From Fidelibacterota bacterium (GTDB lineage Bacteria > Fidelibacterota > UBA8477 > JABMPR01), in NCBI GenBank assembly GCA_013203185.1, contig JABMOS010000068.1, positions 19,889-83,888 of the forward strand: DNA of 64,000 nucleotides, written 5' to 3'. Shown piece after piece: positions 17,122 to 58,649 of the stretch. Each line of letters begins with the position of its first letter. The first letter of the stretch is position 1. The notes below the pieces were generated by a model, which was not told the origin of the DNA, ran no database searches, and was given only the letters and a program-made list of their open reading frames with translations. The translations under genes were made by a program, and so were the position numbers.

Positions 17122-18482
17122 CTAGGCAATCCAGATAGATTTGATATTAGTAAACTCGCGGATACCAAAATGTGATAGCTCTCGACCGTAACCAGAACGC
17201 TTGATTTCGCCAAAGGGAAGTCTTGGATCAGAAACGGTCATCCCATTCACAAAGACCGCTCCACTCTCTACTGCACGTGCCAGTTTCTCACCCCTGACTA
17301 TATCATTGGTCCAGAGTGAACCTCCCAGACCAAATTCGGAATCATTGGCTACTGAGCTTGCTTCCTCAGCATCTTTCACTGGGATGATGGCTGACACGGG
17401 ACCGAAGGTTTCCTCGTGGTACAGACTCATTCCAGTTCTCACATCGCTAATCACCGTGGGCTCATAAAAGAAACCTGGTCCAAGAATAGATTTTCCACCC
17501 AGAAGGAGTCGGGCACCTGCATCCAGACTTGCTTTGACTTGTGCATGTAATTCGTCACGGAGATCTCCCCTTGCAAGGGGGCCGACTTGGGACTCTGGGA
17601 GAAGGGGATCACCAACAATAAGGCTCGACATGATCTGTGCTTTTTTGCTTTCAATTTCCTCAAGACGTGATTCAACCACGATAAATCTCTTGGCTGCGAT
17701 ACAGCTTTGCCCGTTGTTTATCATGCGAGCATTAACAGCTGTGGCAACACATTTATCAATATCTGCGTCCTCCAGAACGATATAGGGATCAGATCCACCT
17801 AACTCCAGGACGGTTTTCTTCAGGGCTCGTGCAGCTATGGCAGCTACGTTCATTCCAGCAACTTCACTGCCAGTCAAAGTCACAGCTCGGATATGGGGAT
17901 TCATGATGATTGCTTCAACCTGGCTGGCTGATATCATCAAGGTTCTAAACAGGTTTTCTGGAAATCCTGCCTTGATAAAGATGTTCTCAATGGCCAAGGC
18001 CCAACCAGGAACATTGGATGCATGTTTGAGAACCACGGCGTTCCCCGCCATGAGGGCTGGTGCAGCGAAACGAAATACCTGCCAGAAGGGGAAGTTCCAG
18101 GGCATAACAGCCAGAACAATTCCCAGGGGTTCAAAACTGATGAAGCTCTTTGAAGCGTTTGTTTCCACCATTTCATCAGCAAGAAAAGATTCTGCCTTAT
18201 CTGCTAAAAAAAATCACATACCCAGGCGCACTTCTCAATTTCAGCGCGGGCCTCATGGATAACTTTTCCCATTTCCAGGGTCATGAGGTGGGCTAGATCC
18301 TCTTTTTCTTTTCGTAGCATGAGGGCTGCCTGTTTCATCTTCTTAGCGCGAAGATTAAAATTGGTAGATTTCCAATCCAGCCAGGCTTCCCCGGTGCTTG
18401 TTACAATGCCAATGGCTTCTTCATTTGAATGGCGGGTATAACTCTGAATGAGCAGGCCGGTTGCAGGATTGATTGACTTCAT
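17122..18482 (-). pseudogene. Sad/YneI-type succinate-semialdehyde dehydrogenase, interrupted by a 1-nt frameshift in an A8/T8 run
   Basis: ORFs 18204..18482 and 17122..18171 align end-to-end with the intact paralogue at 51131..52489 (..EKCAWVCDFF | [LADKAESFLADE]MVETNASKSF..). The frames are offset by one base at the homopolymer 18206-18213. One extra A/T would restore FFLADKAESFLADEM. A homopolymer sequencing error cannot be excluded. Confidence 0.8.
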
Positions 18483-23146: not shown

Positions 23147-23331
23147 GATTTTTAATGATGGCGTATTCATAGATAGCATATAGTGTATATCCAAACCGTT
23201 TTCGTACAAGGATTTTAGCAGAAGAGCACTCGGGAAGAAATACCATTACTAAAGATCTTATGAAAACCATAAAATAATAAAAATAAAGAAAATAGGACCA
23301 TAAATGGAGTGATATCCCAGGGTGATTTGAC

Positions 23332-32238: not shown

Positions 32239-32398
32239 GTTCAGATTATTATCATCTTTCGATTGGTTGGGATAATCTTGTAAATATTGAAACCTTTGAT
32301 TCAGCTATGTCCAGACTAGATTTCATGAGCGAAATCATCACTAATTTGACGTTAAATGAGTGAAACTGCTTCATTAAAAATTGACTGAAAAGGTATAT

Positions 32399-37964: not shown

Positions 37965-38105
37965 TACCCATCAACCACCTACATAGTAGCCAATTGATTT
38001 ATTAGCTGACCCACGTTACTGACTGATTTCCCCTTTCATTAACCAGAACCATTTCTCCCGGGAACCTTGGCAAAATGATTTATTAAACCATTCAAAGGAT
38101 AATAA

Positions 38106-40042: not shown

Positions 40043-40056
40043 CAGAAGGATAAGCC

Positions 40057-40833
40057 GTGCGTATACTTAATCGTGAATTTGATTTTGAAGGCTTCTACGG
40101 TGCTCTAAAAGGGGATGGGCCGAAGCTGTTGCTCCTTGATTATGATGGTACTCTAGCCCCGTTTCGCACCGAGCCCAAACTGGCTGTGCCTTATCCAGAA
40201 GTTCTACCTTTATTGAATGAAATCATTCAGTCACCCCAATTACGGGTCGTTATAATCTCAGGTAGAGCCATCGAAGAACTGAAACCGCTGATAGTATTAA
40301 ATCACCCCATCGAAATGTGGGGATCCCACGGCAGGGAACGTCTCTTGCCAAATGGTTCTTACATCCGGATGGAGGTGTCCAAAAAGCAGGAGGACGGTAT
40401 GAGCATGGCTATTCAGGCTGTGTTTGATATTGAAGCGATGGTTCGATCAGAGTCCAAACCAAGCGCTGTGGCTTTTCACTGGCGAAAGCTGTCTGCAACT
40501 AGTGTCCCTGGCGTGGCAGGAAAAATAAGATCAACTCTAGACAAAATCGCATTATCACATAATCTCGAAGTTAAATCCTTTAATGGAGGTCTTGAGATTT
40601 TGGCTCCTGGGATGGATAAAGGGCAAGCTGTCCGCGAGGTTCTGAATGATCTGCCCCTGCAGGCGACAATTGCCTATGTGGGTGATGATCTTACCGATGA
40701 AGACGCGTTCAAGGAGCTCAACTACAAAGGACTATCAGTCCTTGTGGGAGACACTCCGCGAAAAACACAAGCTGATCTTTGGCTGCAACCCTCTGAGGAA
40801 CTCATCTGGTTTCTCGAGAAATGGAAAAATTAA
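40057..40833 (+). CDS. otsB: trehalose-6-phosphate phosphatase
   Basis: HAD motifs LLLDYDGTLAPF, ISGR and YVGDDLTDEDAF. GTG start. Its stop overlaps the otsA start region. Confidence 0.85.
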   Translation: MRILNREFDFEGFYGALKGDGPKLLLLDYDGTLAPFRTEPKLAVPYPEVLPLLNEIIQSPQLRVVIISGRAIEELKPLIVLNHPIEMWGSHGRERLLPNGSYIRMEVSKKQEDGMSMAIQAVFDIEAMVRSESKPSAVAFHWRKLSATSVPGVAGKIRSTLDKIALSHNLEVKSFNGGLEILAPGMDKGQAVREVLNDLPLQATIAYVGDDLTDEDAFKELNYKGLSVLVGDTPRKTQADLWLQPSEELIWFLEKWKN

Positions 40834-42398
40834 TGAAACAAAACACAATGACCCCAGCAGGGGCAATACATGCCTGGAATGTGGGCAAACAGCACAAAAT
40901 GGTTATCGTATCCAATCGTTTGCCTGTTGTCGTCCAGGATAAAGGCGAAGGGCAGTGGGAGGTGAAATCCGGCTCAGGAGGTCTGGTTACCGCCCTGGCA
41001 CCGGTATTGCGGGATCGCGGTGGAACCTGGATCGGTTGGCCAGGTCATGTGGATAAGGATTCTCAGGGGGTCGATGATCTATTACGGAAACATGATGAGG
41101 AGATAGGATATTCACTGCGTCCGGTTATGCTGGATGATGAAGAAGTGGAAAATTATTATAAGGGGTTCTCAAATGAAACATTGTGGCCCCTCTTCCATGA
41201 TCTCATCGATCACAGTCAGTTCAAACCAGAGTACTGGGACGCCTATCAGCGAGTGAATCGCAAGTTTGCAGAGGTCGTCAAATCAAATATAGAACCGGAA
41301 GACTTCATCTGGATCCACGACTATCACTTGATCAGTGTTATTAGCTATCTCCGGGAGATGGGCGTAAAAAACAAGGTTGGTTTTTTTCTTCACATTCCCT
41401 TTCCCCCCACGGACATCTATTCCCGACTTCCATCAAGATTAGAGGTTTTGAATGCCATGCTGGCGTACGATCTGGTTGGTTTTCAGTCAGCGCGTGACAG
41501 ACGAAATTTTGTACAGAGTGTACGCTCCTTAAAGGACAAGCCCAAGATCAAAGGAAAAGGGCAGGTCATAGGGATCCAGGGAGAAATGGGCAAGCTTAAA
41601 GCTGGTGTATTCCCTATCAGTATTGACTACAAGGAATTTAACAGTGCTGCGCAAAGCGCTGAGGTAGCTCAGAGTAGCAGCGTATTGCGTCAACTTTTTC
41701 CCAACCAGAAGATAATTCTGGGCGTGGACCGTTTGGATTATACAAAGGGTATCCCTGAGCGATTGCGATCCTTCCGTGAAGCTCTGCGACGTTTTCCTGA
41801 GCTGATTGGACAATTAAGCATGATTCAGATACTGGTGCCCAGCCGGCGAGATATCCACAAATACGAGGATTTAAAAATCGAGATTGAGAGGATGATTGCT
41901 GAGATCAATGGCGAATTCACTCGGCCAGGATGGCTGCCCATCGAGTATCAATTTCGATCATTGGATCGTAAGGAGTTGCTGGCCTATTACCGGGTGGCAG
42001 ATATCATGATGGTCACACCGCTGAAAGATGGAATGAATCTAGTGGCCAAAGAGTATTGTGCCTGCAACATAGAGGGCAATGGCGTTTTGATTCTCAGTGA
42101 GTTTGCAGGAACGGCTGCCCAGCTAAAATTAGGGGCTATACTGGTGAACCCTCATGATACAGTGGAATGTGCAGAAGCAATTTTCATGGCCTTTCACATG
42201 GAAGAAAAAGATCGCAAAATCAAGATGCAGAAACTGAGGCGTAATGTAAATCGGAGCGACATTTTCGACTGGGTCGATAGCTTCCTAAAGGCGGCATTCT
42301 CAATCGGACTTGGCAGTTTTCCACTTCTGGCGGACTATCGGCCTCTCAAGGAGGGCCGAGAGGCTGTAATCAGGGTGGAGTCAACAGGGACTCTCTAA
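40821..42398 (+). CDS. otsA: alpha,alpha-trehalose-phosphate synthase (GT20)
   Basis: GT20 motifs IVSNRLPV, GSGGLVTAL, WIGWPG, FSNETLWPLFH, IWIHDYHL, FFLHIPFP, LG.DRLDYTKGI and TPLKDGMNLVAKEY. An alternative coupled start is TAATG at 40833. Confidence 0.9.
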   Translation: MEKLMKQNTMTPAGAIHAWNVGKQHKMVIVSNRLPVVVQDKGEGQWEVKSGSGGLVTALAPVLRDRGGTWIGWPGHVDKDSQGVDDLLRKHDEEIGYSLRPVMLDDEEVENYYKGFSNETLWPLFHDLIDHSQFKPEYWDAYQRVNRKFAEVVKSNIEPEDFIWIHDYHLISVISYLREMGVKNKVGFFLHIPFPPTDIYSRLPSRLEVLNAMLAYDLVGFQSARDRRNFVQSVRSLKDKPKIKGKGQVIGIQGEMGKLKAGVFPISIDYKEFNSAAQSAEVAQSSSVLRQLFPNQKIILGVDRLDYTKGIPERLRSFREALRRFPELIGQLSMIQILVPSRRDIHKYEDLKIEIERMIAEINGEFTRPGWLPIEYQFRSLDRKELLAYYRVADIMMVTPLKDGMNLVAKEYCACNIEGNGVLILSEFAGTAAQLKLGAILVNPHDTVECAEAIFMAFHMEEKDRKIKMQKLRRNVNRSDIFDWVDSFLKAAFSIGLGSFPLLADYRPLKEGREAVIRVESTGTL

Positions 42399-42425
42399 AG
42401 TCTAAATTTTATTAAGGAGCAACAT

Positions 42426-43172
42426 ATGTTACGCAGCGCGATAGACATTTTGGGGTATAACCTGAAGGCATTGGATGGGGAAATTGGAAAATCAAAAGAC
42501 TTCCTCTTCGATGACCAGCATTGGGCCGTACGATATCTCATGGCTGAAACTGGACGTTGGCTACAGGGTAAACGGGTGCTAATCTCACCAATATCAATCG
42601 AACAACCAGATCGTGATGCACGCGTTTTTCCAGTGAATTTAACCAAACAGCAGATTGAAGACGCGCCTAATGAGGGTGAAGATATGCCTGTATCCCACAA
42701 ATTTGAAATCGAGTTCTTCAAGTATCATCAATGGCCCTATTACTGGAATGGTGGGTATCCCTGGGGCATCCTCATCCCAATGGAAAGGACTAATATGAAT
42801 AAGCCTGCTGGGAGAGACTCTCTAGATGATATTGAAGGTGATAAAAATCTCCGCTCCCTGAACGAGGTCAAGGGCTATAACATTCAAGCGACCGATGGCC
42901 ATATTGGTCATGTGGAAAATCTGATCCTCGATGACGAAACCTGGACCATTCGCTACCTTGTGGTGGATACACGTAATTGGCTGCCGGGAAAGCGAGTGCT
43001 GGTTTCACCTTCATGGGCTGAAAAAATCGATTGGGCAAAAAACACTGTAGACGTCAATATGAGCAGAGATCAAATCAAGAATAGCCCCGATTACGATGAC
43101 TCAAAACTCATGACTCGGAAATTCGAAAACAGTTTATTCAAGTATTATGGAGTCCCAGGGTACTGGTTATAG
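42426..43172 (+). CDS. tandem PRC-barrel domain protein
   Basis: Two PRC-barrel units: LGYNLKALDGEIGKSKDFLFDDQHWAVRYLMAETGRWLQGKRVLISP and VKGYNIQATDGHIGHVENLILDDETWTIRYLVVDTRNWLPGKRVLVSP. Confidence 0.8.
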   Translation: MLRSAIDILGYNLKALDGEIGKSKDFLFDDQHWAVRYLMAETGRWLQGKRVLISPISIEQPDRDARVFPVNLTKQQIEDAPNEGEDMPVSHKFEIEFFKYHQWPYYWNGGYPWGILIPMERTNMNKPAGRDSLDDIEGDKNLRSLNEVKGYNIQATDGHIGHVENLILDDETWTIRYLVVDTRNWLPGKRVLVSPSWAEKIDWAKNTVDVNMSRDQIKNSPDYDDSKLMTRKFENSLFKYYGVPGYWL

Positions 43173-43336
43173 CGAAGATTTCGCCCAATCTGGATTAGCT
43201 CGTGAACCTCATTTACTTCGTTACAGATGGGAATCATGACCAGGGTGAGTATGGATTGATTCGCCTGGCAAGAAGTCGGGGTGGTCACCGGAGTGGAATG
43301 TCGAGGTGGTGGCAAAGAGAATAACCTCAGGACTGC

Positions 43337-44467
43337 ATGTCTCGAATCAACTCCCCGAATACTTGCATCGAAAACATAACTGAACTGGAAGCTTTACACA
43401 TGGACTTATTTTTAATCTATCTGGATAAACATTCATCAACCCTGCTCTTAGTAGCCAGTTTATTGGGTTTTTCTCTGGTGATCCGCTATGGTTTTGCACC
43501 TAAGATTCTGGAACTGTTTCGTCGGGTGAAGGGTGTCAAGATCTCTGTAGAATTGCTTTATCAACCATTGAGTAATTTGAGCATACCTGTCTTCAGTATG
43601 TTTATCACACCCATTCTCAGCCTACCCACACAATTCAATGCCGTTTTCCAACATATGATGCAGATTTGGCTAATTGGTGCTTTAGCCTGGTTGCTCATTC
43701 GGATCTTGGTCCTTTTTAAAGAATTAATTCTAGGTCAGTATCAGCTTGACGCTAAAGACAACTTGAAAGCCAGGCAGATCAGCACCCAACTACTAATGAT
43801 AGAACGTGTTGTTAATGCAGTGATTCTGTTAATTGCAGGATCCATCATCCTTATGAGTTTTGATAAAGCGCGTGAAATCGGATTCAGTTTACTTGCCTCA
43901 GCTGGTATTGCAGGAATTATTCTTGGTTTGGCTGCTCAACGCAGTCTGGCAACACTATTTGCAGGTATCCAACTGGCTATCACCCAGCCTATCCGCATCG
44001 ACGATGTGGTCATTGTGGAGCATGAATGGGGATGGATAGAGGAGATAACTCTGACGTTTGTTGTTGTGAGAATATGGGATCAAAGACGCCTGGTCCTGCC
44101 AATTACCTACTTCATAGAACACCCCTTCCAGAACTGGACCAGGAAGCGAGCTGACCTGTTGGGCACTGTGTATCTGTATGTTGATTACAAAATGCCCTTG
44201 GACGATTTGCGGACTGAATTGGACAGAATTGTCAAAGAATCCCCGTTGTGGGACGGTCGAGTGGCAAAAATTCAGGTCACCAATGCAACGGAAAAGTCGG
44301 TTGAGCTGCGCGCCCTGGTAAGCGCAGAAAATGCTTCTAACGCCTGGGATCTTCGCTGCCTGGTGCGTGAAGATCTGCTCACTTACATACAACGGCACTT
44401 CCCTGAAAGTCTTCCCAGGATAAGACTCGACCGAGGTTTTCCAGAGCAAGGGGAGAGCAATGTCTGA
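43337..44467 (+). CDS. MscS-family small-conductance mechanosensitive channel
   Basis: TM helices followed by the pore helix and beta domain: AGIAGIILGLAAQRSLATLFAGIQLAITQPIRIDDVVIVE..WG.IEEITLTFVVVRIWD.RRLVLP. The true start may be the internal MDLFLIYL. Confidence 0.85.
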   Translation: MSRINSPNTCIENITELEALHMDLFLIYLDKHSSTLLLVASLLGFSLVIRYGFAPKILELFRRVKGVKISVELLYQPLSNLSIPVFSMFITPILSLPTQFNAVFQHMMQIWLIGALAWLLIRILVLFKELILGQYQLDAKDNLKARQISTQLLMIERVVNAVILLIAGSIILMSFDKAREIGFSLLASAGIAGIILGLAAQRSLATLFAGIQLAITQPIRIDDVVIVEHEWGWIEEITLTFVVVRIWDQRRLVLPITYFIEHPFQNWTRKRADLLGTVYLYVDYKMPLDDLRTELDRIVKESPLWDGRVAKIQVTNATEKSVELRALVSAENASNAWDLRCLVREDLLTYIQRHFPESLPRIRLDRGFPEQGESNV

Positions 44468-45308
44468 TATCATTCTCAAACACGGAAACAGTCTCATCCA
44501 ACACGGGTCGTTAAGTGACCGCGTATATATCATGAAACTTGATCCTGGTGAATGTGAGGAGGTGATTGATTTTGTTGAAAAGCTGGCTACTGAAAAGGGC
44601 TATTCAAAAATCTTTGCGAAGGTACCATTATCTTTAATTACAACATTTATTGCTGGAGGTTATGAAGAAGAAGCACGCATTCCGGAATTAGGGGAATCTC
44701 CCAGCGGTATTGCTTTCATGTCCAACTTCCTTGTGAAAAGACGTAAAAAACCCGGTAAGACTCACGAAATCATGCAAGTCAAATCTGCCTCGCTTATCCG
44801 CGGTGTTCCTCGAAAAAGCACTCCACTCTCAAGCGAATTCTCTATCAAGGAGGCGGAAATAGCTGATAGTGCTGACCTGGCCTTGCTTTATCGAGAAGTC
44901 TTTGCCTCCTACCCTTTTCCCATTTATGACCCTCTCTTTATTGCCAACAGCATGACTGAGGATGTTCGCTATTTTATCATCAGTCACAAAGGAGAAATTG
45001 TGGCAGCTGCGGCCGCAGAAATGGACTATGACACCCGCAGCGTCGAGATGACTGACTTTGCAACTAACCCCGGCCATAGGGGACGTCAATTTGGTCAGAT
45101 TCTTCTCGATCATATGGAAGTTGCTATGATTCAGGAACCCATAGACACGACCTATACCATAGCCCGTGCTGTCTCTCACGGAATGAATATTACATTTGCT
45201 CGTTCGGATTATGAATTTGCCGGTACGCTTATAAACAATACAAATATCAGTGGGTCTATCGAGAGCATGAATGTCTGGTATAAACAAATTGTCCATCCCG
45301 CCAATTAG
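44460..45308 (+). CDS. AblB/YodP-like GNAT acetyltransferase (putative beta-lysine N-acetyltransferase family)
   Basis: The N-terminal GNSLIQHGSLSDRVYIMKL followed by ..KGYSKIFAKVP...GGYEEEARIP...AFMS.FL..RR, plus a C-terminal GNAT core (HRGRQFGQILL), matches my recollection of the ablB-type family. It overlaps the mscS stop by 8 nt. No lysine 2,3-aminomutase gene is in the window. Confidence 0.6.
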   Translation: MSDIILKHGNSLIQHGSLSDRVYIMKLDPGECEEVIDFVEKLATEKGYSKIFAKVPLSLITTFIAGGYEEEARIPELGESPSGIAFMSNFLVKRRKKPGKTHEIMQVKSASLIRGVPRKSTPLSSEFSIKEAEIADSADLALLYREVFASYPFPIYDPLFIANSMTEDVRYFIISHKGEIVAAAAAEMDYDTRSVEMTDFATNPGHRGRQFGQILLDHMEVAMIQEPIDTTYTIARAVSHGMNITFARSDYEFAGTLINNTNISGSIESMNVWYKQIVHPAN

Positions 45309-48092: not shown

Positions 48093-48989
48093 ATGGAAAA
48101 ATCACACAAACACAATCATAGTCATGACGTTCAAATATCCCACGGGAAAGCTTTTGCTTTAGGCATTGGGCTAAATATTGCATTTGTAATCATAGAGATT
48201 GTTTATGGTTTGATTGCAAATTCATCAGCTTTATTTGCCGATGCTGGACATAATGCAAGCGATGTACTAGGACTTGCTTTTGCATGGGCAGCTGCTTGGA
48301 TGGCCACCATAAAACCAAGCGGCAAGTACACCTATGGTCTTCGAAAAACAACTATTCTTGTTTCTATTCTCAATGCATTACTACTTTTTGGCGCTGTCGT
48401 TATTATTGCGTGGAATGCTATAGAAAAACTTAAAGAACCGGAGCCTGTTTTTGGTACTCAGATTATAATTGTTGCAGCAATAGGAGTAATCATAAATACC
48501 GTTACTGCTTTATTGTTCTTAAAAGGGCAGAAAAGTGACCTTAATATTAAAGGTGCATTTCTTCATATGGCAGCTGACGCTGGTGTTTCACTTGGTGTCG
48601 TGGTTGCAGGGTTACTCATAAATATAACGGGAATGCTATGGATTGACCCCGTAACTAGCTTTGTAATTATACTGGTTATTGTTTGGGGAACATGGAACCT
48701 GTTTACCGCTTCGATTGACCTGGCATTGGACGCTGTTCCCAAACACATTGACGTTGGAGAAGTAAAAGCTTTATTGTCTAGCCAAAAAGGAGTAAAAGGC
48801 ATTCACGATTTACACATCTGGGCGTTAAGCACTTCACAAGTTGCCTTATCGGTACACCTATATATTCCTAATGGAGCTAACGAAAATTTCCTTGCCGATA
48901 TGCAAAAAGAACTTGAACAGGAATATGGAATCAAACATATAACAGTTCAGATTGAGAATGATAAAATTGATTGCGAAACTGAATGTTGA
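48093..48989 (+). CDS. czcD: cation diffusion facilitator (CzcD/ZitB-type) divalent metal efflux protein
   Basis: His-rich N-terminus (HKHNHSHD), TM2 motif SSALFADAGHNASD, TM5 motif FLHMAADAGVSLGV, and the C-terminal cytoplasmic domain (VKGIHDLHIWALS). By eye it looks more AT-rich than its neighbours. Confidence 0.9.
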   Translation: MEKSHKHNHSHDVQISHGKAFALGIGLNIAFVIIEIVYGLIANSSALFADAGHNASDVLGLAFAWAAAWMATIKPSGKYTYGLRKTTILVSILNALLLFGAVVIIAWNAIEKLKEPEPVFGTQIIIVAAIGVIINTVTALLFLKGQKSDLNIKGAFLHMAADAGVSLGVVVAGLLINITGMLWIDPVTSFVIILVIVWGTWNLFTASIDLALDAVPKHIDVGEVKALLSSQKGVKGIHDLHIWALSTSQVALSVHLYIPNGANENFLADMQKELEQEYGIKHITVQIENDKIDCETEC

Positions 48990-49125
48990 ACCTTTTTTAA
49001 TGATAATAAAAAATATTACGCTGTACGTTGTCAAAGTAATTCGGACCAATCCGCTCAAGTCCAGCCGAACCAATGGATAATCTTCTTCCAGGAAAAAATA
49101 ATCAAGAAGTAAAACTGTGTCAAAA

Positions 49126-49357
49126 TAGTGTCAAGTAATATTAGAAGTGGTTGCGTTATTTGTCTTAATTATCCCACCCAACAGGAAAATATCCCAGCAT
49201 GTATCCAAAGTATAAATGAATGATTATGGGTCTTTTAGAGGTGTACCCGGGGTCTGATCCGCTACCGCGGATTGGGTCGAACCGGCACGGCTTTCATGTC
49301 GCAGCGAAGTTCGAAGGACGTAGCCGGAAAGGGCCGAGGGATTTTAAGCCCTGAATA
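49126..49357. repeat. intergenic repeat R2, copy A (homologous to 59474..59686); structured core 49241..49357 with a tRNA-like motif on the minus strand
   Basis: The core ..CGAACCGGCACGGCTTTCATGTCGC(A/G)GCGAAGT..AAGGACGTAGCCGGAAAGGGCCGAGGGATTTTAAG(C/T)CCTGAATA is shared by both copies. A second shared block (TAGTGTCAA...TATTTGTCT.A.TTATC) lies about 70 nt upstream. In copy A a GATCCGC-tac-GCGGATT hairpin replaces half of the T-arm-like hairpin of copy B. Confidence 0.8.
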
Positions 49358-49451
49358 ATTAACCAAAGCAACACACTCATTAATCCTAGGAAGACTCGAA
49401 TTCCGGATCAATAGTGAATTGAATGCATAGAATAGGAATAAGGAGACATAT

Positions 49452-51134
49452 ATGACCGTTGCTGAGTTGATTATTAAAGCACTTGAGGTCGAAGGGGTGA
49501 AGTACGTTTTTGGCGTGCCTGGAGAAGAAACTGAAGATCTGCTTTTTGCCCTTGAGCAGTCGTCTATCATCTTTGTTCCCACCCGTCATGAACAGGGTGC
49601 AGCCTTCATAGCTGATGTATATGGGAGAACCACGGGCAAAGCAGGCGTATGCCTGGCTACCCTGGGACCTGGAGCCACAAACTTGATCACAGGTATTGCT
49701 GATGCCTACCTGGATAAGGCACCAGTGGTAGCTATAACAGCTCAGGCCAGTTCGGTTCGTGTCCATAAAGAAAGCCACCAGGTTCTGGACATTCTCAATA
49801 TGTTGAAACCCATCACCAAATGGAACGCCAGCATCCAAAATCCTCTGGCGGCCAGTGAAATCGTTCGCAAAGCATTTAAGATGGCCCAGTCAGAGAAACC
49901 GGGTCCTACCCATATTGAATTACCTGAAGATGTAGCGGCTGAAGTCACCAGCTTGCCTGCTCTGGTATCTGGAGGTGTTCGAAGAAGTGCTCCTGACCAC
50001 AAGGCTATTCAGGTCGCCATGGAATTGCTGGGTCAAGCCCAGGCACCCATTATCCTTGCTGGAAATGGCGCTATCCGCAAGCGGGCCAGTAAGCATATCA
50101 GAGAATTTGTCGCCCAGACGGACATTCCAGTGATCTCCACCTTCATGGGCAAGGGTGCCATTGATGATAGAGATCCCCATTCACTGTACACCATTGGCGT
50201 CCCTGGCAGGGATTACCAGATGTGTGCCCTGGAACGAGCTGATCTGGTTTTAGCCATTGGTTATGATATTGGAGAATACGATCCTGCGAAATGGAACCCT
50301 ACCGGTGATAAACAGATCATTCACATCGATTTTGATCCCGCCGAAGTCTATGAATACTACCAGCCGAAGGTTGAGGTCATCGCCGATATATCAGCCAGCA
50401 TGTGGGAATTGAATCGTCAGGTCGCTGAAAAGCAGCTCAAGTTCCATCCCACCTGGTTTGCCAATCTCCGCGAAACGATTGAAAGCGATTTTAGAGCCTA
50501 CAGGATGAAGCCAGGGGAGGCATTCACCGTGCCAGGCAGTCTCCATATTATCCGAGAATACATGCGCCCAGGTGACATGATGCTCTCAGATGTGGGTAGC
50601 CACAAAATGTGGATCGGTCGCAACTTTCCAGTCTATGAAGCGAATTCCACCTTTATCTCAAATGGGCTGGCCACCATGGGTATCGCCCTGCCCGGTGGCA
50701 TCGGTGCAAAATTAGCCCATCCTGAAAGACGGGTGGTAGCCGCCATGGGAGATGGGGGTTTTCTCATGAATGTACAGGAGATCGAAACAGCAAAACGCAT
50801 GGGTCTGGGATACCCCATCATCGTCTTCAATGACAATGATTATGGACTCATTCGCTGGAAACAGACCAGCAGTACGGGCAAAACCTTTGGCACGTCCATT
50901 AGCAACCCTGATTTTGTTAAATTAGCAGAGAGCTTTGGAATCGAAGGCCACTCACCCAAGACTCTGGATGAGTTGGATGCCACCTTAAAGCGGGTGATCG
51001 AGGGCCAAGTCCTCAGTATCGTGGAGATCGCCATTGATCCGCGTGTCAATTTCGAGCTCACACAAAAATTGAATCAGAACATCTGTGAACGCTTTGAATT
51101 TCCTGAATTAAGCAGCAAAGGAGAACCCTCATGA
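49452..51134 (+). CDS. ThDP-dependent acetolactate-synthase-like enzyme; candidate 2-oxoglutarate decarboxylase by context
   Basis: 560 aa with ELIIKALEVEGVKYVFGVPGEE, RHEQGAAFIADVYGR.TGKAGVCLATLGPGATNL, and the ThDP motif GDGGFLMNVQEIETA...NDN. A strong AAGGAG RBS is present. Its stop overlaps the SSADH start (ATGA). Confidence 0.85.
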   Translation: MTVAELIIKALEVEGVKYVFGVPGEETEDLLFALEQSSIIFVPTRHEQGAAFIADVYGRTTGKAGVCLATLGPGATNLITGIADAYLDKAPVVAITAQASSVRVHKESHQVLDILNMLKPITKWNASIQNPLAASEIVRKAFKMAQSEKPGPTHIELPEDVAAEVTSLPALVSGGVRRSAPDHKAIQVAMELLGQAQAPIILAGNGAIRKRASKHIREFVAQTDIPVISTFMGKGAIDDRDPHSLYTIGVPGRDYQMCALERADLVLAIGYDIGEYDPAKWNPTGDKQIIHIDFDPAEVYEYYQPKVEVIADISASMWELNRQVAEKQLKFHPTWFANLRETIESDFRAYRMKPGEAFTVPGSLHIIREYMRPGDMMLSDVGSHKMWIGRNFPVYEANSTFISNGLATMGIALPGGIGAKLAHPERRVVAAMGDGGFLMNVQEIETAKRMGLGYPIIVFNDNDYGLIRWKQTSSTGKTFGTSISNPDFVKLAESFGIEGHSPKTLDELDATLKRVIEGQVLSIVEIAIDPRVNFELTQKLNQNICERFEFPELSSKGEPS

Positions 51135-52489
51135 AAGCCATCAATCCAGCCACCGGCGAAATTATAAAAGATTATCCTGAACATTCCAGTCAAGAGGTTC
51201 AACACATTCTAAGCAGCACACAATCAGCTTGGGAGGATTGGCGACGAACCAGTTTTGTTCATCGTTCTACACTCATGGGGCGAGCTGCAGATGTCCTGCG
51301 CAATAATTCTGAAAAATATGCAAGGATCATGTCAGTGGAAATGGGCAAGGTGATCACGGAAGCCAGGGCGGAGGTGGAAAAATGCGCCTGGGTTTGTGAA
51401 TTTTATGCTGAGCATGCTGAAACCTTTCTCCAGGATGAAATGATAAAAACTGAAGCTTCGAAGAGTTTCGTGTCCTTTGATCCCATGGGGATCGTCCTGG
51501 CTGTCATGCCCTGGAATTTTCCCTTCTGGCAAGTGTTCAGATTTGCTGCCCCAGCACTCATGGCTGGCAATGCTGGTGTGTTAAAACATGCTTCCAATGT
51601 ACCGGGGTCGGCTTTGGCCATTGAAGAGGTTTTTCATGAAGCAGGTTTCCCTCCTGATATATTTCGAACTCTGATGATCCCAGCCAAACAGGTTGAAGAC
51701 GTCATCAGGGATCCCCGAGTCCGCGCCGTGACCCTGACAGGGAGTGAGGGTGCCGGGATGCAGGTTGCCTCCATTGCAGGTAGTGAGTTGAAGAAAACCG
51801 TGCTGGAATTAGGCGGTTCAGATCCCTATATCGTGTTGGAGGATGCTGATATTCCGGCCTGTGTTGCCATGTCAGCCAAGTCGAGAATGATCAATACAGG
51901 ACAAAGTTGTATTGCTGCCAAGCGCTTTATCGTCGTTGAGTCAAAGGTGGCTGAATTTGAAAAGGCACAAGCGGAGATTCTCAGCCAGCTTCGAATTGGT
52001 GATCCTCAGGCGGAAGACACACAGGTTGGACCAATTGCCAGGGCCGATCTCCGGGATGAACTTCATGACCAGGTGACTCGCACCCTTGAGGCTGGAGGCC
52101 GTCTGGTAACAGGAGGTACATTTGTGGATGGGCCAGGAGCTTTTTATCAGCCAACGGTTATCTCAGATGTTAAAAAGGGGATGCCCATTTATTCTGAAGA
52201 AACATTTGGACCTGTTTCAGCCATTATACCAGTCAAAGACGCAGAGGAAGCCATTGCCGTGGCCAACGATTCAGAGTTTGGGTTGGGAGGCTCCTTATGG
52301 ACTGCCGATGTGAACAGGGGTGAGGCATTGGCCCGACGGGTGGAATCAGGGGCTGTTTTTGTGAATGGTATGACCCTGTCGGATCCGCGGATGCCGTTTG
52401 GCGGAATCAAGAAATCTGGCTACGGCAGGGAGCTTGGTACCTATGGAATTAAAGAATTTGTAAATGTAAAATCCATATGGATAGCCTGA
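51131..52489 (+). CDS. NAD(P)-dependent succinate-semialdehyde dehydrogenase (Sad/YneI type)
   Basis: Collinear with my recollection of E. coli YneI: INPATGE, MPWNFPFWQVFR, LKHASNVPG, ELGGSDPYIVL, NTGQSCIAAKRFIV, DLRDELH.QV, ANDSEFGLGGSLWT, FVNGM..SDPRMPFGGIKKSGYGRE. Confidence 0.9.
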   Translation: MKAINPATGEIIKDYPEHSSQEVQHILSSTQSAWEDWRRTSFVHRSTLMGRAADVLRNNSEKYARIMSVEMGKVITEARAEVEKCAWVCEFYAEHAETFLQDEMIKTEASKSFVSFDPMGIVLAVMPWNFPFWQVFRFAAPALMAGNAGVLKHASNVPGSALAIEEVFHEAGFPPDIFRTLMIPAKQVEDVIRDPRVRAVTLTGSEGAGMQVASIAGSELKKTVLELGGSDPYIVLEDADIPACVAMSAKSRMINTGQSCIAAKRFIVVESKVAEFEKAQAEILSQLRIGDPQAEDTQVGPIARADLRDELHDQVTRTLEAGGRLVTGGTFVDGPGAFYQPTVISDVKKGMPIYSEETFGPVSAIIPVKDAEEAIAVANDSEFGLGGSLWTADVNRGEALARRVESGAVFVNGMTLSDPRMPFGGIKKSGYGRELGTYGIKEFVNVKSIWIA

Positions 52490-52502
52490 GTCCTGGGGAT
52501 GA

Positions 52503-52637
52503 AAAATCCGATATTTATGGACACGGATATATTGCAGTAACGTTCTAAAAATTAACGTGACTGATTTGAATAAATGTGTTTATGTGTGTGGACCTCCACC
52601 AATGATTGACGCCATGGAGGAGCTGTTATTGAATTAA
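52503..52637 (+). pseudogene. relic of the C-terminus of an FNR-family (FAD/NAD(P)-binding) oxidoreductase
   Basis: A 44-codon open frame ends ..INVTDLNKCVYVCGPPPMIDAMEELLLN*. The VYVCGPPPM(I/V)DA motif is the conserved C-terminal strand of ferredoxin-NADP-reductase-like domains. No upstream body of the gene exists, because the SSADH stop is at 52489. Confidence 0.45.
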
Positions 52638-52684
52638 AGGTAATTGAGAATCTTATCGTCAAGGAAGGATTTTAAGCAAACAAC

Positions 52685-55477
52685 ATGGAAAATGATCTCT
52701 TTCAAATAAAAAGCACTTTGCAATTAGGTAAAACTCGGTATTCCTATTACAGCCTCACGGAGCTAAAAAAGCAAGGGTATCCCATAGAGAAATTCCCTTT
52801 TTCCATTCGCATTTTATTAGAGAACGCTTTGCGCAATTTTGATGATTTTGCAGTGACCAAAGAGGCCATTGATACCCTTCTGAACTGGAAACCAAAAGGG
52901 TCGGCCAAGGAAATTCCGTTTAAACCAGCCCGTGTTCTGATGCAGGATTTTACCGGAGTTCCAGCCGTAGTGGACATTGCAGCACTGCGCTCGGAAGTAG
53001 CGAGAAAAGGTCATGATCCCAATACCCTTAATCCGCTTATTCCTGTTGATTTGGTGATAGACCACTCGGTACAGGTAGATTACTTCGGCACTGAATATTC
53101 CTATCAACGCAATATAGACGAAGAATACAAACGCAACGCTGAGCGATATCAATTTTTGAAGTGGGCTCAGAAATCCTTCGACAATTTTAGTGTCGTTCCG
53201 CCGGGAATGGGAATCTGCCATCAGGTGAATCTTGAATATCTCTCAAAAGGCGTGATTGAAAGAAATGGAGAAGTATTCCCGGACACATTGGTGGGAACAG
53301 ACAGTCATACCCCAATGGTCAACGGCATTGGCGTTCTGGCCTGGGGTGTTGGTGGCATTGAGGCAGAAGCCGCTATTTTGGGACAACCAATTTATTTTAT
53401 TATGCCTGAAGTTATTGGTCTAAAACTAACTGGCAAACTTCCCCTGGGCTCAACCGCAACAGACCTGGTCTTAACCATTGCCAACTTGCTCCGTGAATTT
53501 GGTGTGGTAGGAAAATTTGTTGAGGTTTTTGGTGCCGGGCTGGATCACCTTTCAGTACCAGACCGAGCAACCATAGGTAATATGTCGCCCGAATTCGGTT
53601 GCACCATCACCTATTTCCCCATTGATGATAAAACCCTGGATTATATGCGGAAAAGCAACCGCCCTGAAGAGCATATAGAATTGGTTGAGTCGTATTGCAA
53701 AGCCAATATGCTCTGGCGGGAGAATGAAGATAAGATCAGCTATACAGCTGTTTTGGAATTAGATCTGTCAACGATAGAGCCTACTGTTGCCGGCCCGAAA
53801 CGCCCACAGGATAAAATTCTCTTAAAAGACTTCAAAAACAGATTTATCGAGTTGCTGGATAAATCGTTTGACCGCAAATACATCATACAGGAAAGCCGTG
53901 AGAACCAACAACCCATAACGACGTGGAATGCGGAAGGAGGAGATCAACCCGTACATAAAGCAGATACCAAATCATTAAAAACAGAAACAGAAGTGCATGA
54001 AAAAGATGGATTAAAGACAGTTTGGATTACACAAAATCAAGAGAAATTCATGCTTTCTGATGGTGCCGTGGCCATAGCAGCTATAACCTCTTGCACCAAT
54101 ACCTCAAATCCATATGTAATGATCGGGGCCGGTCTAGTAGCTCGAAAAGCCAGGGAGCATGGTATTGATGTAAAACCCTGGGTAAAAACGTCGCTTGCAC
54201 CCGGTTCTAAAGTAGTGACCGACTATCTTGAAAAGGCAGATTTAATGAAGGATTTGGAAGCCTTACAATTTCATCTGGTTGGCTATGGCTGTACTTCCTG
54301 TATTGGAAATTCAGGTCCTTTACCTGAGCAAATTGCGAAAGCAATTGATGAACATAATATCGTCGTGGCATCGGTACTTTCCGGAAATCGAAATTTTGAA
54401 GCGAGAATTCACCCTCAGGTTAAAATGAATTTCCTGATGTCTCCCATGCTGGTGGTGGCTTATGCCCTTGCAGGACGTGTGGATATTGATTTGATAAATG
54501 AGCCGCTAAGCTATGATTCCAATCAGGAACCGGTATACCTGAAAAATATTTGGCCCACAAATGATGAAATAAATGAAGTTTTAAACCTGGTATTGTCTCC
54601 TGGCGATTTTGCTAAAAATTATGGTGAAATTTTTGAGGGGAATGAAACCTGGAGAGATCTGAAAGTTCCCACCGGAAAATTGTATGAATGGGACAAGAAT
54701 TCCACCTACATCAAAGAAATTCCATTCTTTCATGATCTTTCTGAACATCCGGAACCACTAAAAAATATTCAAGACGCACGGGCTTTGCTTGTGTTGGGTG
54801 ATAGCATCACCACCGACCATATCTCTCCCGCAGGCGCTTTTAGTCCGGCATCTGCTTCTGGAAGATATTTGTTAGAGCAGGGCGTAAAAAAAGAGGATTT
54901 TAATTCCTATGGATCGCGTAGGGGAAACGATGAAGTGATGGTGCGTGGTACTTTCGCCAATGTTCGCATCAAGAACAAATTGGCAACACAAGAAGGTGGA
55001 TACACTACATTTTTACCTACCGGGGAAGAACTATCTGTATACGATGCTTCTGTAAAATACAAAGATACACATACTCCCTTATTGGTGCTTGCCGGAAAAG
55101 AATATGGTAGTGGCTCCTCCAGGGATTGGGCAGCTAAAGGCACATTCTTATTGGGGATAAAAGCCGTATTGGCTGAAAGTTACGAACGGATCCACAGAAG
55201 TAATTTGGTTGGAATGGGCGTCCTGCCGCTCCAATATAAAAATGGAGAAACTGCCGCAAGCTTAGGGCTATCTGGCAAGGAAGTGTTCTCGATAAGCCGT
55301 ATGGCAGAGGATCTTAAGCCGTTGAAAAAAGTCCAGATAATCGCCAAAAATGAGCTGGGGGAAGAAAAGAAATTCCATGCAATCGCCCGTCTCGATTCCA
55401 AAATAGAAATTGAATACTACCGGCATGGCGGCATACTGCAATATGTGTTGAGACGTTTTTTACAAAAGGAGGATTAA
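52685..55477 (+). CDS. acnA: aconitate hydratase A
   Basis: 930 aa with PARVLMQDFTGVPAVVD, VIDHSVQVD, PPGMGICHQVNLE, GTDSHT, ITSCTNTSNP, GCTSCIGNSGPL, LSGNRNFE.R, GDSITTDHISPAG and GSSRDWAAKG. Full-length AcnA/IRP pattern. Confidence 0.95.
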   Translation: MENDLFQIKSTLQLGKTRYSYYSLTELKKQGYPIEKFPFSIRILLENALRNFDDFAVTKEAIDTLLNWKPKGSAKEIPFKPARVLMQDFTGVPAVVDIAALRSEVARKGHDPNTLNPLIPVDLVIDHSVQVDYFGTEYSYQRNIDEEYKRNAERYQFLKWAQKSFDNFSVVPPGMGICHQVNLEYLSKGVIERNGEVFPDTLVGTDSHTPMVNGIGVLAWGVGGIEAEAAILGQPIYFIMPEVIGLKLTGKLPLGSTATDLVLTIANLLREFGVVGKFVEVFGAGLDHLSVPDRATIGNMSPEFGCTITYFPIDDKTLDYMRKSNRPEEHIELVESYCKANMLWRENEDKISYTAVLELDLSTIEPTVAGPKRPQDKILLKDFKNRFIELLDKSFDRKYIIQESRENQQPITTWNAEGGDQPVHKADTKSLKTETEVHEKDGLKTVWITQNQEKFMLSDGAVAIAAITSCTNTSNPYVMIGAGLVARKAREHGIDVKPWVKTSLAPGSKVVTDYLEKADLMKDLEALQFHLVGYGCTSCIGNSGPLPEQIAKAIDEHNIVVASVLSGNRNFEARIHPQVKMNFLMSPMLVVAYALAGRVDIDLINEPLSYDSNQEPVYLKNIWPTNDEINEVLNLVLSPGDFAKNYGEIFEGNETWRDLKVPTGKLYEWDKNSTYIKEIPFFHDLSEHPEPLKNIQDARALLVLGDSITTDHISPAGAFSPASASGRYLLEQGVKKEDFNSYGSRRGNDEVMVRGTFANVRIKNKLATQEGGYTTFLPTGEELSVYDASVKYKDTHTPLLVLAGKEYGSGSSRDWAAKGTFLLGIKAVLAESYERIHRSNLVGMGVLPLQYKNGETAASLGLSGKEVFSISRMAEDLKPLKKVQIIAKNELGEEKKFHAIARLDSKIEIEYYRHGGILQYVLRRFLQKED

Positions 55478-55577
55478 CTAATTATTTTGTTAACACTAAA
55501 TCCTGGAGAAAACGAATCAAGACCGTTACAGCCAAGCTTCAACCAGATGATGTGAAAGTAATAATACAGGCAAAAAG

Positions 55578-56984
55578 ATGAATGATATGAAATATAGAAT
55601 TGAAAAAGATACAATGGGTGAATTAAAAGTGCCTGAAAATTGTTACTGGGGTGCTCAAACAGAACGTTCGCGCAATAATTTTAACATTGGTCCTGAAGGC
55701 TCTATGCCCAAAGAGATCATTCATGCTTTTGCTTATTTGAAAAAAGCAGCAGCGATGACAAATCATCAATTAGGTGTGTTAGCTGCCGACAAACAGAAAC
55801 TGATAGTAAAGGTATGTAATGAAATCATTGCCGGTAAGCTGGACAAGGAGTTCCCTCTGGTTATCTGGCAAACTGGTTCAGGGACACAATCCAATATGAA
55901 TATAAACGAAGTAATTGCCAATCGGGCGCACGTGATGCAAGGTCATAGATTGGGAGAGGGCACACTATATATTCATCCCAATGATGATGTCAATAAATCA
56001 CAATCATCCAATGATACTTTTTCATCTGCCATGCATCTAGCCACTTATAAGCTGGTGATGGAAAATACTATTCCCGGGATAGAAATATTGATAGATACAT
56101 TGCAGAGTAAATCGCAAGATTTCAAAAGTATTGTTAAAATCGGTCGTACTCACTTCATGGATGCTACGCCATTAACCTTAGGTCAAGAATTTTCAGGTTA
56201 TGCACAACAACTAGTTAATGGTATCAGGACCATCAAAAATGCCCTGAAATCAGCTCGCGAATTAGCCCTGGGAGGAACAGCTGTTGGCACAGGACTAAAC
56301 GCTCCCAAAAGATATGATTTATTAGTAGCAGAAAAAATTGCAGAACTCACCGGCTTTCCATTTATTACTGCCCCCAATAAATTTGAAGCCATCGCTGCAC
56401 ACGACGCCATGGTTGAATTATCTGGAGCATTAAAACGTTGTGCAGTTTCGTTGATGAAAATAGGAAATGATATACGCATGTTGAGTTCTGGTCCACGTTG
56501 TGGCATAGGAGAGCTAATTATTCCAGAAAATGAACCGGGTTCATCTATCATGCCCGGTAAAGTGAATCCCACACAAGCTGAAGCGTTAACAATGGTCTGT
56601 GCCCAAATAATGGGAAATGATGTAACCGTATCTATCGGTGGTTCAAACGGCCACTTTGAATTAAATGCGTTTAAACCGCTTATTGCCGCCAATGTATTGC
56701 AATCAGCTCGTTTGATAGGTGATGCCTGTGTTTCATTTAACAATCAGTGCGCAGTGGGCATTCGCCCCAATAACCCCAGAATTAAACAACATCTTGAAAA
56801 TTCTCTTATGCTGGTAACGGCTCTTAACACGCACATAGGATATGAAAAAGCCGCTAAAATTGTTAAGAAAGCACAGGCAGAGAATAAAACATTGCAGCAA
56901 GCAGCAATAGAACTCAAGCTTGTGACCAACAAGCAATTTGATGAATGGGTGAAGCCAGAAGATATGTGTGGGGGCACAGATTAG
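55578..56984 (+). CDS. fumC: class II fumarate hydratase
   Basis: The motifs [10 protein letters not shown]....[39 protein letters not shown] and the signature [11 protein letters not shown], with length 468 aa. Confidence 0.95.
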
Positions 56985-57042
56985 ATGGTGTTCTAGCTAC
57001 TTTCTCCAGACAATCAATCAGATCATAGGAGCGAAGGTTGGA

Positions 57043-58374
57043 ATGAGGCCGCAGATTACAAATAAAACTTACTCTCCAGATTGTTCCACGGGTGCGAGGA
57101 TATGTCTTCCTGATACGCAGTTCCCAAGATTGGTAATCATTGGCGGAGGTTTTGCTGGATTGGCTTTGGTCGAGGGTCTCAAAAACCTAAATATCCAGAT
57201 CGTGTTGATTGATCGTAACAATTTTCATCAATTTCAGCCCCTGCTCTATCAGGTTGCCACCAGTGGTTTAGAGCCAGATAGTATCGTTTTTCCATATCGG
57301 AAGCAAATATCAGGCTATCCGAATACCATCTTTCGCATGGCAGATGTTCAAGATATCAAGCCATCAACAAATACCGTCATCACCAATAAGGGAAGCATAA
57401 GTTATGATTACCTGGTATTGGCGACGGGTACTACCAATAATTTCTTTGGGATGACCGAGCTTGAGGAGAATAGCATAGGGCTCAAGGATATCCGCGATTC
57501 CATAAACATCCGCCACAGGATGCTACACAACCTGGAGCAAGCGGCAATTACTTGTGATGCTGCTGAGCAGGACGCTCTCACCAATTTTGTGATAGTAGGT
57601 GGCGGTCCCGCAGGAGTGGAGATGGCTGGAGCTTTGGCGGAATTTTGTAAATTCATCCTACCCAAAGATTATCCAGAATATCCATCCTCCATCATGAAGA
57701 TTTATCTGATGGAGGCATCTGATAAAATACTGCCTGCAATGTCTGACAAAGCATCATCTGAAGCCCTGAAATACTTAAGACAAATGGATGTACAGGTAAT
57801 TCTGAAAGAAATGGTTACCGGATTCGATGGTCTTAATGTGACAACCAAAGACAATAAAACCATCCTGGCAAAAAATATGATCTGGACTGCTGGTGTGAAA
57901 GGGCAGTTCCCCAACGGTCTTGCTGTTCAAAATAACATTGCAAGTGGAAATCGATTAAAAGTGGATCAGTATCTGAAACTTGAAGGACATGCTAATATTT
58001 TTGCTGCGGGGGATATTGCTGCCGTGATTAACGGAGCGACATCAGTCGCACACCCTCAAGTGGCTCAAGTTGCTATTCAGCAGGGCAGGTACCTTGCTCA
58101 TTCATTGCAACATATTCTAAAACAACAGCCATCAAAGCCCTTCATCTACAAAGATAAAGGGACCATGGCAACAGTTGGGAAACGAAGGGCAGTAGCAGAT
58201 ATAGGACTATTTGAATTTTCTGGCTATTTCGCGTGGTTATTGTGGTCATTAGTTCATTTAGTCTCTATTAGCGGTTTTAAAAATAAGCTCATGGTCGGCT
58301 TGAATTGGGTCCTGAGCTATATTTCCTATGATAAGAGTAATCGGTTAATTATTACAGATTCAAAGATCAAATAA
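57043..58374 (+). CDS. ndh: type II NADH dehydrogenase (NDH-2)
   Basis: The motifs RLVIIGGGFAGL, FQPLLYQVAT, LVLATG, FVIVGGGPAGVE and AAGDIA. The track ORF starts at 56968 inside fumC. The ATG at 57043 (MRPQITN), preceded by AGGAG, is preferred. Confidence 0.85.
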   Translation: MRPQITNKTYSPDCSTGARICLPDTQFPRLVIIGGGFAGLALVEGLKNLNIQIVLIDRNNFHQFQPLLYQVATSGLEPDSIVFPYRKQISGYPNTIFRMADVQDIKPSTNTVITNKGSISYDYLVLATGTTNNFFGMTELEENSIGLKDIRDSINIRHRMLHNLEQAAITCDAAEQDALTNFVIVGGGPAGVEMAGALAEFCKFILPKDYPEYPSSIMKIYLMEASDKILPAMSDKASSEALKYLRQMDVQVILKEMVTGFDGLNVTTKDNKTILAKNMIWTAGVKGQFPNGLAVQNNIASGNRLKVDQYLKLEGHANIFAAGDIAAVINGATSVAHPQVAQVAIQQGRYLAHSLQHILKQQPSKPFIYKDKGTMATVGKRRAVADIGLFEFSGYFAWLLWSLVHLVSISGFKNKLMVGLNWVLSYISYDKSNRLIITDSKIK

Positions 58375-58473
58375 AAACATAAACAACCACCTAATGATTC
58401 CCAGCTAATGGGGCTGCCTGTCTGCCAGACTTCATACCGGCCTCATCAATCTCATGGTGGAAAAACCCCTTAT

Positions 58474-58550
58474 GAGGTCATGAAGTGTCTCTTAACTTAA
58501 ACGACAAATACTCCGGTGGGTATTGACGTATCACAAAGTACGAGTTTCAA
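58474..58550. repeat. intergenic repeat R1, copy B (homologous to 47899..47975)
   Basis: See copy A. It lies about 100 nt upstream of the ferredoxin gene, in the same orientation relative to the downstream gene as copy A is to czcD. Confidence 0.8.
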
Positions 58551-58649
58551 AATTGAGCAGGGAGCACAATGTAAAGTACACAAAATACTGGTCCGCATAA
58601 GAGCCATTACAGGAGCGTGTACAAATAAAAATAACATAAAAGGAATAAT

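Follow-up and report, generated by a model that had tools for sequence, protein, structure and literature searches.

The stretch of DNA analysed here (64,000 nucleotides of contig JABMOS010000068.1, positions 19,889 to 83,888 of the forward strand; hereafter the window) comes from the metagenome-assembled genome (MAG) of a heterotrophic member of the Marinimicrobia (Fidelibacterota). On its plus strand, a gene for a thiamine diphosphate (ThDP)-dependent enzyme overlaps a gene for an aldehyde dehydrogenase (ALDH). The two are candidates for a 2-oxoglutarate decarboxylase (OgdA) and a succinic semialdehyde dehydrogenase (SSADH; SsaD in cyanobacteria), the enzymes that form a bypass in the tricarboxylic acid (TCA) cycle of cyanobacteria. 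The pair and its start signals are arranged as follows, the signals and the overlap having been read from the sequence.

49441..49445, plus strand: Shine-Dalgarno-like AGGAG, 6 nt 5′ of the start of the ThDP-enzyme gene
49452..51134, plus strand: ogdA-like gene, candidate ThDP-dependent 2-oxoglutarate decarboxylase, 560 aa, ATG start; databank name 'acetolactate synthase large subunit'
51119..51123, plus strand: AGGAG ribosome-binding site of the dehydrogenase gene, within the 3′ end of the ThDP-enzyme gene
51131..51134, plus strand: ATGA stop/start overlap, 4 bp
51131..52489, plus strand: ssaD-like gene, candidate NADP+-type SSADH, 452 aa, ATG start

At the junction (tcATGAaa, 51129-51136) the start codon ATG occupies 51131-51133 and the stop codon TGA 51132-51134, which gives the 4-bp overlap, and an AGGAG lies 6-7 nt ahead of both start codons. 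Coordinates, lengths and junction agree with the first-pass annotation, which had described two open reading frames (ORFs) with an ATGA stop/start overlap. Such an arrangement suggests that translation of the two genes is coupled.

Protein families and active-site residues

The ThDP protein contains the Pfam domains TPP_enzyme_N, TPP_enzyme_M and TPP_enzyme_C (E-values 7e-37, 7e-34 and 6e-41) and passes the curated cut-off of a single NCBIfam model, NF006187 (PRK08322; 673 bits vs 509). It falls below the cut-offs of the models for catabolic acetolactate synthase (AlsS; NF006378, 452 vs 510; TIGR02418, 412 vs 551) and biosynthetic acetohydroxyacid synthase (AHAS; TIGR00118, 398 vs 538). The locus of Synechococcus sp. 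PCC 7002 was found via its exact SsaD protein (ACB00745, A2771), and the adjoining ThDP gene of 545 aa is OgdA, SynPCC7002_A2770. This characterized OgdA matches the same model NF006187 with 872 bits and aligns with the window protein end to end, at 46% identity over 545 aa with 2 gaps; identity to the solved catabolic AlsS proteins, the nearest solved structures, is 32-35%.

Neighbour-joining (NJ) trees with 100 bootstraps had three AlsS sequences as their outgroup. The AlsS sequences stand apart from every family member in 100/100 replicates, the cyanobacterial members form a clade of their own (support 100), and the window protein joins first the Marinimicrobia (100), next Zixibacteria plus an archaeal contig (91), and finally Bacteroidota-type MAGs and haloarchaea (96). 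The enzyme, described in the first-pass annotation as acetolactate-synthase-like, is thereby placed within the OgdA family and apart from AlsS, the one outgroup of the tree. Because the characterized Synechococcus OgdA belongs to the same family, the tree places the window protein within it and the AlsS and AHAS cut-offs are missed, NF006187 is best regarded as the OgdA family; the automatic product name 'acetolactate synthase large subunit' is misleading and probably wrong for the whole equivalog family. The window protein carries a C-terminal tail (residues 546-560; 51087-51134) with the motif C-x-x-FEFP, which is kept in Marinimicrobia, Zixibacteria and archaeal relatives and is absent from cyanobacterial OgdA. 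The 3′ end of the region encoding this tail also holds the ribosome-binding site of the dehydrogenase gene.

The active site points in the same direction as the family assignment. In Bacillus subtilis AlsS, Q424 and Q487 recognize and position the second pyruvate (PMC9469723); in the alignment their equivalents in the window protein are Ala407 and Lys470. Nearly all of the 80 family members fetched in the genome scan described below have Ala or Cys at position 407 and Lys at 470, whereas AlsS has Gln at both. Ala407 and Lys470 correspond to Ala408 and Lys471 of MaKGD, the Microcystis decarboxylase, which have been proposed from docking to contact 2-oxoglutarate, Lys471 as a salt bridge (PMC10418658). 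A further match is Lys385 (MaKGD K386), at a position occupied by Ala, His or Tyr in AlsS. Overall, the ThDP protein keeps Glu47, His384-Lys385, Ala407, Met409, the GDGG motif (Asp434), Asp461, Tyr464, Leu466 and Lys470. Among these, Glu47, Asp434, Asp461 and the V-conformation Met409 match MaKGD E50, D435, D462 and M410, for which a role has been shown by mutagenesis (PMC10418658). Four of the five residues on the docking-derived MaKGD pocket list (K386, A408, L467, K471 and Q254) are retained as Lys385, Ala407, Leu466 and Lys470, and Q254 is replaced by Pro251. Decarboxylation of 2-oxoglutarate has been measured for four cyanobacterial family members, namely the enzyme of Synechococcus 7002, Synechocystis sll1981 and two Microcystis enzymes, and MaKGD formed no aldehyde from pyruvate or from four other α-ketoacids tested besides 2-oxoglutarate (PMC10418658).

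One solved structure stands at the edge of this family. PDB entry 13BB (chain A, 558 aa), titled 'acetolactate synthase', forms a long branch at the OgdA-family base; it has Lys at the position of Lys470, but Met at 385 and Gly at 407. The NJ split that leaves it out receives just 53/100 bootstrap support.

The dehydrogenase has a full-length Aldedh domain (Pfam, E-value 2e-139). Its best match among solved structures is the SSADH of Synechococcus 7002 (SySSADH; 4IT9/3VZ1) with 508 bits, followed by enterobacterial Sad/YneI with 433, and it is 51-53% identical to cyanobacterial SsaD. Structure and mutagenesis of SySSADH have assigned catalysis to Cys262, Glu228 and Asn131 and the preference for NADP+ to Lys154 and Ser157, and have placed Trp135, Arg139 and Ser419 around the substrate carboxylate. 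The window dehydrogenase keeps eight out of eight of these residues (N131, W135, R139, K154, S157, E228, C262 and S419). W135, R139, S419, K154 and S157 are identical in the dehydrogenase, in a frameshifted paralogue elsewhere in the window and in every SsaD-type partner examined. With NF006187 shared with OgdA and a dehydrogenase closest to SsaD that retains all functional residues, the pair belongs to the same two families as the cyanobacterial 2-oxoglutarate decarboxylase and SSADH, as the first-pass annotation had proposed.

The gene pair in other genomes

The family was mapped in one genome per species (GTDB representatives). The scan returned more than 600 NF006187-family members from more than 15 bacterial and archaeal phyla, of which the 80 best were retained (51 non-cyanobacterial and 29 cyanobacterial loci). 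The scanned set does not include the source MAG, and its closest protein shares 78% identity with that of the window. Among close homologues, the ThDP gene likewise precedes the ALDH gene and overlaps it by 4 bp in a Marinimicrobia relative (L004/L005), a Zixibacteria MAG (L006) and a contig (L007/L008) that is taken to be archaeal because it encodes PCNA. The overlap also occurs at L009 and L014. By lineage, the overlapping cassette is found in Marinimicrobia, Zixibacteria, Balneolaceae and the archaeal contig. Its recurrence in several phyla argues that the pairing is more than chance, and the co-conservation in relatives to which the first-pass annotation had tied its proposal is thus borne out.

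An SsaD-type gene lies no more than ~500 bp from the ThDP gene in 13 of the 51 non-cyanobacterial loci and directly adjoins it on the same strand in 11 of these 13; the partners are 49-83% identical to the window dehydrogenase. Neomarinimicrobiota, Zixibacteria, Saprospiraceae and Balneolaceae have the gene downstream; Halorubrum, Halapricum, Natronomonas, a Rokubacteria MAG and an uncultured archaeon (gap ~500 bp) have it upstream; and in a Methylomirabilota MAG the two genes are divergent. In cyanobacteria, ssaD is found directly upstream of ogdA, within ~250 bp, at 22 of the 29 loci. Because gene order differs between clades, the window cassette is not a cyanobacterial operon that was transferred recently.

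A different ALDH, 26-31% identical to the window dehydrogenase, directly adjoins the ThDP gene at another 16 of the 51 loci (L020, L022, L025-L027, L037, L040, L058, L068, L071, L077, L078 and L080-L083), mostly in Proteobacteria, Desulfobacterota, Myxococcota, Rhodothermia and Spirochaetales. Its closest NCBIfam match is a lactaldehyde-dehydrogenase-like model, below the cut-off, and it has Asn, His and Arg at SySSADH positions 135, 139 and 419. Of the 16 ThDP proteins paired with it, 13 carry Cys rather than Ala at the position of window residue 407. This second ALDH type may be a second, independently recruited partner, and linkage to two unrelated types of ALDH fits an aldehyde-producing decarboxylase rather than a carboligase. 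At 19 of the 51 loci (5 of them with short flanks) no ALDH was detectable within 6 kb, and the remaining three have a distant, non-adjacent class-B-like ALDH 2-4 kb off.

Neighbouring genes and the TCA cycle

Three further genes follow the pair on the plus strand, and a second ssaD-type gene lies on the minus strand.

52685..55477, plus strand: acnA, aconitate hydratase A, 196 bp 3′ of the pair (NF006757, 1354 vs 686; TIGR01341, 1313 vs 945)
55578..56984, plus strand: fumC, class II fumarate hydratase (TIGR00979, 742 vs cut-off 665)
57043..58374, plus strand: NDH-2-like flavoprotein of the pyridine-nucleotide-disulfide oxidoreductase family (weak, below-cut-off NCBIfam matches; the ORF call starts at GTG 56968)
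17125..18482, minus strand: second ssaD-type gene, frameshifted (tblastn, two frames; frame change near 18207-18210)

The identities of acnA and fumC given in the first-pass annotation are confirmed above curated cut-offs, while the gene named there as a type 2 NADH dehydrogenase (NDH-2) is a plausible one with a flavoprotein match at the family level only. Within 48900-58600, promoter-like sites occur at chance level (20 found vs 19.9 expected) and no terminator was found on the plus strand between the genes; operon boundaries therefore cannot be called. In the other related loci no homologues of AcnA, FumC or NDH-2 were found, apart from a fumC ~3.3 kb 3′ of the pair in the Marinimicrobia relative L004. 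The first-pass annotation had read the TCA-gene neighbourhood as a pointer to a shunt; since the linkage is not conserved, it provides no evidence for a TCA role and this argument has been dropped.

Neither the window nor 10 kb of extra upstream flank contains genes for 2-oxoglutarate dehydrogenase (OGDH) or 2-oxoglutarate:ferredoxin oxidoreductase (KOR), and no gadB- or gabT-type gene was seen there. Besides acnA and fumC, the window shows no gltA, icd, sdh or mdh/mqo, and the extra flank holds only peptidoglycan-recycling and transporter genes, with no TCA genes. Haloarchaea and Bacteroidota (Saprospiraceae, Balneolaceae) normally carry KOR or OGDH; because the pair also occurs in these lineages, its presence does not imply that OGDH has been replaced. 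For some Marinimicrobia clades, published reconstructions describe either an oxidative TCA cycle or 2-ketoacid:ferredoxin oxidoreductases (PMC5688066), and a literature search on 2-oxoglutarate decarboxylase, OGDH and KOR in Marinimicrobia returned no direct statement about the gene pair.

The second ssaD copy, also reported in the first-pass annotation, is real. Residues 1-92 are matched at 18482-18207 (54% identity) and residues 91-452 at 18210-17125 in another frame (73%). It keeps eight out of eight SySSADH functional residues and adjoins an amino-acid permease gene (15355-16764, minus strand); an assembly error, instead of a true pseudogene, could account for the frameshift. The window also contains a fragment of a second fumC (36811-37184, plus strand) that covers FumC residues 339-468 in two reading frames at 81-86% identity to the intact copy; it sits directly 5′ of a MarR gene at 37416 and is probably a pseudogene left over from a rearrangement or duplication.

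That MarR gene opens an osmoprotection-like block 5′ of the pair (37416-45308, plus strand), which continues with DUF5752, TreT-like, trehalose phosphatase and GT20 trehalose-phosphate synthase genes, followed by genes for a PRC-barrel protein and an MscS-like channel and by ablB, which encodes beta-lysine N-acetyltransferase and has no ablA next to it. In the relative L004 the block lies at 1891-10004, and its MscS-like gene overlaps the start of ogdA by 4 bp. Three consecutive genes resembling those of saccharopine-pathway lysine catabolism are found at 5301-9551 (plus strand) and encode an AlaDh_PNT_N protein, a saccharopine dehydrogenase and a 506-aa ALDH; the product of this pathway, 2-oxoadipate, is a conceivable alternative substrate of the ThDP enzyme. 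Large secreted proteins with type IX secretion sorting tails or PorZ-like regions are encoded at 18506-23209 (minus strand), 32381-35134 (plus strand) and 59943-63059 (plus strand); they include a CotH/LTD/beta-helix protein of 1567 aa and an M6 peptidase, and the set fits an organism of the FCB superphylum.

Possible roles and relation to known systems

We infer the substrates and the physiological role of the pair from orthology, residue conservation and conserved linkage. Together these suggest, with a probability of roughly 0.7, that the overlapping genes form an OgdA/SsaD-type module that converts 2-oxoglutarate via succinic semialdehyde to succinate and reduces NADP+. The ThDP enzyme would decarboxylate 2-oxoglutarate non-oxidatively to succinic semialdehyde and CO2, and the ALDH, probably co-translated, would oxidize the semialdehyde to succinate with reduction of NADP+ (or NAD+). 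The two steps would amount to a route from 2-oxoglutarate to succinate that is independent of coenzyme A (CoA) and able to close or supplement an oxidative TCA cycle.

Several observations weigh against this reading or narrow its basis. All family members with assayed activity are cyanobacterial and none comes from the non-cyanobacterial clades, and an identity of 46% to OgdA allows for a shifted substrate range. One docked contact, MaKGD Gln254, is Pro251 in the window protein. The MaKGD contacts themselves come from docking into an AlphaFold model and not from a crystal structure (PMC10418658), which makes the comparison of pocket residues suggestive only. The patterns used in the genome scan contained the His-Lys motif, so part of its conservation in the fetched loci is built in. 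The acnA-fumC linkage, as described above, is not conserved in relatives. Finally, the dehydrogenase misses all NCBIfam equivalog cut-offs, with NF006915 as the best model (592 vs 730); the characterized SsaD of Synechococcus 7002 likewise stays below that cut-off (684 vs 730), so that NF006915 does not define the clade and the missed cut-off is uninformative.

Whether the module would replace OGDH is a separate question. The pair might close the TCA cycle in place of OGDH, but the enzymes, with the same activities, could instead act in an auxiliary or conditional shunt beside OGDH or KOR, for example to supply NADPH or to spare CoA, or the SSADH could mainly clear succinic semialdehyde from elsewhere. 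We regard such an auxiliary role as a real, if lesser, possibility. It would fit the occurrence of the pair in haloarchaea, Saprospiraceae and Balneolaceae, the unconserved acnA and fumC linkage and the second ssaD copy beside an amino-acid permease gene, as well as the published Marinimicrobia reconstructions (PMC5688066). It sits less well with the lack of gadB/gabT-type, OGDH and KOR genes in the window and the extra upstream flank, and with the fact that the homologous cyanobacterial pair carries TCA flux (PMC12214013). A far-reaching version of the proposal appears doubtful: that the lineage is without OGDH and KOR and runs a cyanobacterial-type TCA cycle via ogdA-ssaD, that the NF006187 proteins are pan-phylum 2-oxoglutarate decarboxylases (>15 phyla, >600 matches), and that the ALDH partner has been recruited twice independently, as the SsaD type and as the Asn/His/Arg type.

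Two alternatives concern the chemistry itself. The ThDP enzyme could act on another 2-oxo-dicarboxylate, such as 2-oxoadipate from lysine breakdown, with the dehydrogenase then oxidizing glutarate semialdehyde. The lysine catabolism genes of the window, the JGI name for relatives of the dehydrogenase ('succinate-semialdehyde / glutarate-semialdehyde dehydrogenase') and the fact that 2-oxoadipate lies outside the set of substrates tested with MaKGD (PMC10418658) speak for this. The lysine genes, however, are 40 kb off and unlinked to the pair in every relative examined, the residues that hold the carboxylate of succinic semialdehyde in SySSADH are all unchanged, and the docked contacts Lys385, Ala407, Leu466 and Lys470 match characterized OgdA proteins exactly, which leaves the idea improbable. 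That the databank annotation is right, and the pair consists of an acetolactate synthase and an unrelated dehydrogenase, is very unlikely. The NCBI family name and the nearest solved structure, a catabolic acetolactate synthase, favour it, but the protein reaches no AlsS or AHAS cut-off, other residues stand in place of the two glutamines that position the acceptor, the scanned window ORFs include no alsD- or ilvN-type neighbour, linkage or overlap with an ALDH gene persists across phyla, and the family name is contradicted by Synechococcus 7002 OgdA matching the same model.

If the OgdA/SsaD-type reading is true, the abundant dark-ocean heterotrophs of the Marinimicrobia (SAR406), along with many other uncultured lineages, can convert 2-oxoglutarate to succinate without CoA and with a yield of NADPH, and the scoring of TCA cycles as 'complete' or 'incomplete' from MAGs changes. 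The shunt is invisible in pathway reconstructions because annotation pipelines name the family 'acetolactate synthase large subunit'; the practical gain lies in correcting a systematic misannotation and in showing how widespread the module may be. The concept as such dates from 2011, when it was described in cyanobacteria, and homologues in other organisms were reported straight away. Zhang and Bryant (2011) pointed out that some methanogens and anaerobic bacteria have close relatives of these genes (PMC12214013), and a set of 2-oxoglutarate decarboxylase and SSADH has been proposed for Thiomicrorhabdus (PMC9751133). For the shunt in a non-cyanobacterial lineage that the first-pass annotation suggested, the enzyme identities and the match to the cyanobacterial pair are supported, but it would not be the first outside cyanobacteria; the pair adds a further OgdA/SsaD case, in a phylum for which our literature search on Marinimicrobia found no mention of it.

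Compared with the AlsS proteins of B. subtilis (4RJI) and Klebsiella pneumoniae (1OZF), the ThDP enzyme shares the three-domain ThDP fold, the GDG...ND motif and the catalytic Glu. It differs in its low identity (32-35%), in scores below the AlsS cut-offs, in the replacement of Q424 by Ala and Q487 by Lys, and in having an ALDH gene rather than alsD as its neighbour. Enterobacterial Sad/YneI, an NAD(P)+-dependent SSADH (3EFV, 8QMS), is of the same ALDH subfamily and size as the window dehydrogenase (433 bits), which is nevertheless nearer to SySSADH (508 bits) and has the cyanobacterial Ser157/Lys154 pair for NADP+ preference. Sad is not known to be linked to a ThDP decarboxylase. In mycobacteria and in the Euglena route, the decarboxylase is an unrelated ThDP enzyme of the SucA/E1o type. 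The chemistry proposed for mycobacterial Kgd (SucA-like) with GabD1/GabD2 and for the Euglena route is the same, from 2-oxoglutarate via succinic semialdehyde to succinate, and the mycobacterial Rv1248c has been reported to make 2-hydroxy-3-oxoadipate rather than the free semialdehyde (PMC10418658).

The closest known system is the cyanobacterial bypass of OgdA (A2770) and SsaD (A2771) described by Zhang and Bryant (2011), with further 2-oxoglutarate decarboxylases in Synechocystis (sll1981) and Microcystis (MAE_06010). The window pair differs from it in its heterotrophic host, in the C-x-x-FEFP tail of its ThDP enzyme and in gene order, which is reversed: cyanobacteria have ssaD followed by ogdA, usually with a gap of ~10-240 bp, and the window has ogdA followed by ssaD with a 4-bp overlap. 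Identity to the cyanobacterial pair is 46% for the ThDP enzyme and ~52% for the dehydrogenase. Both systems nevertheless combine an NF006187 ThDP enzyme with a SySSADH-type ALDH with identical functional residues, both share the diagnostic His-Lys, Ala407 and Lys470, and in both the two genes adjoin each other on the same strand.

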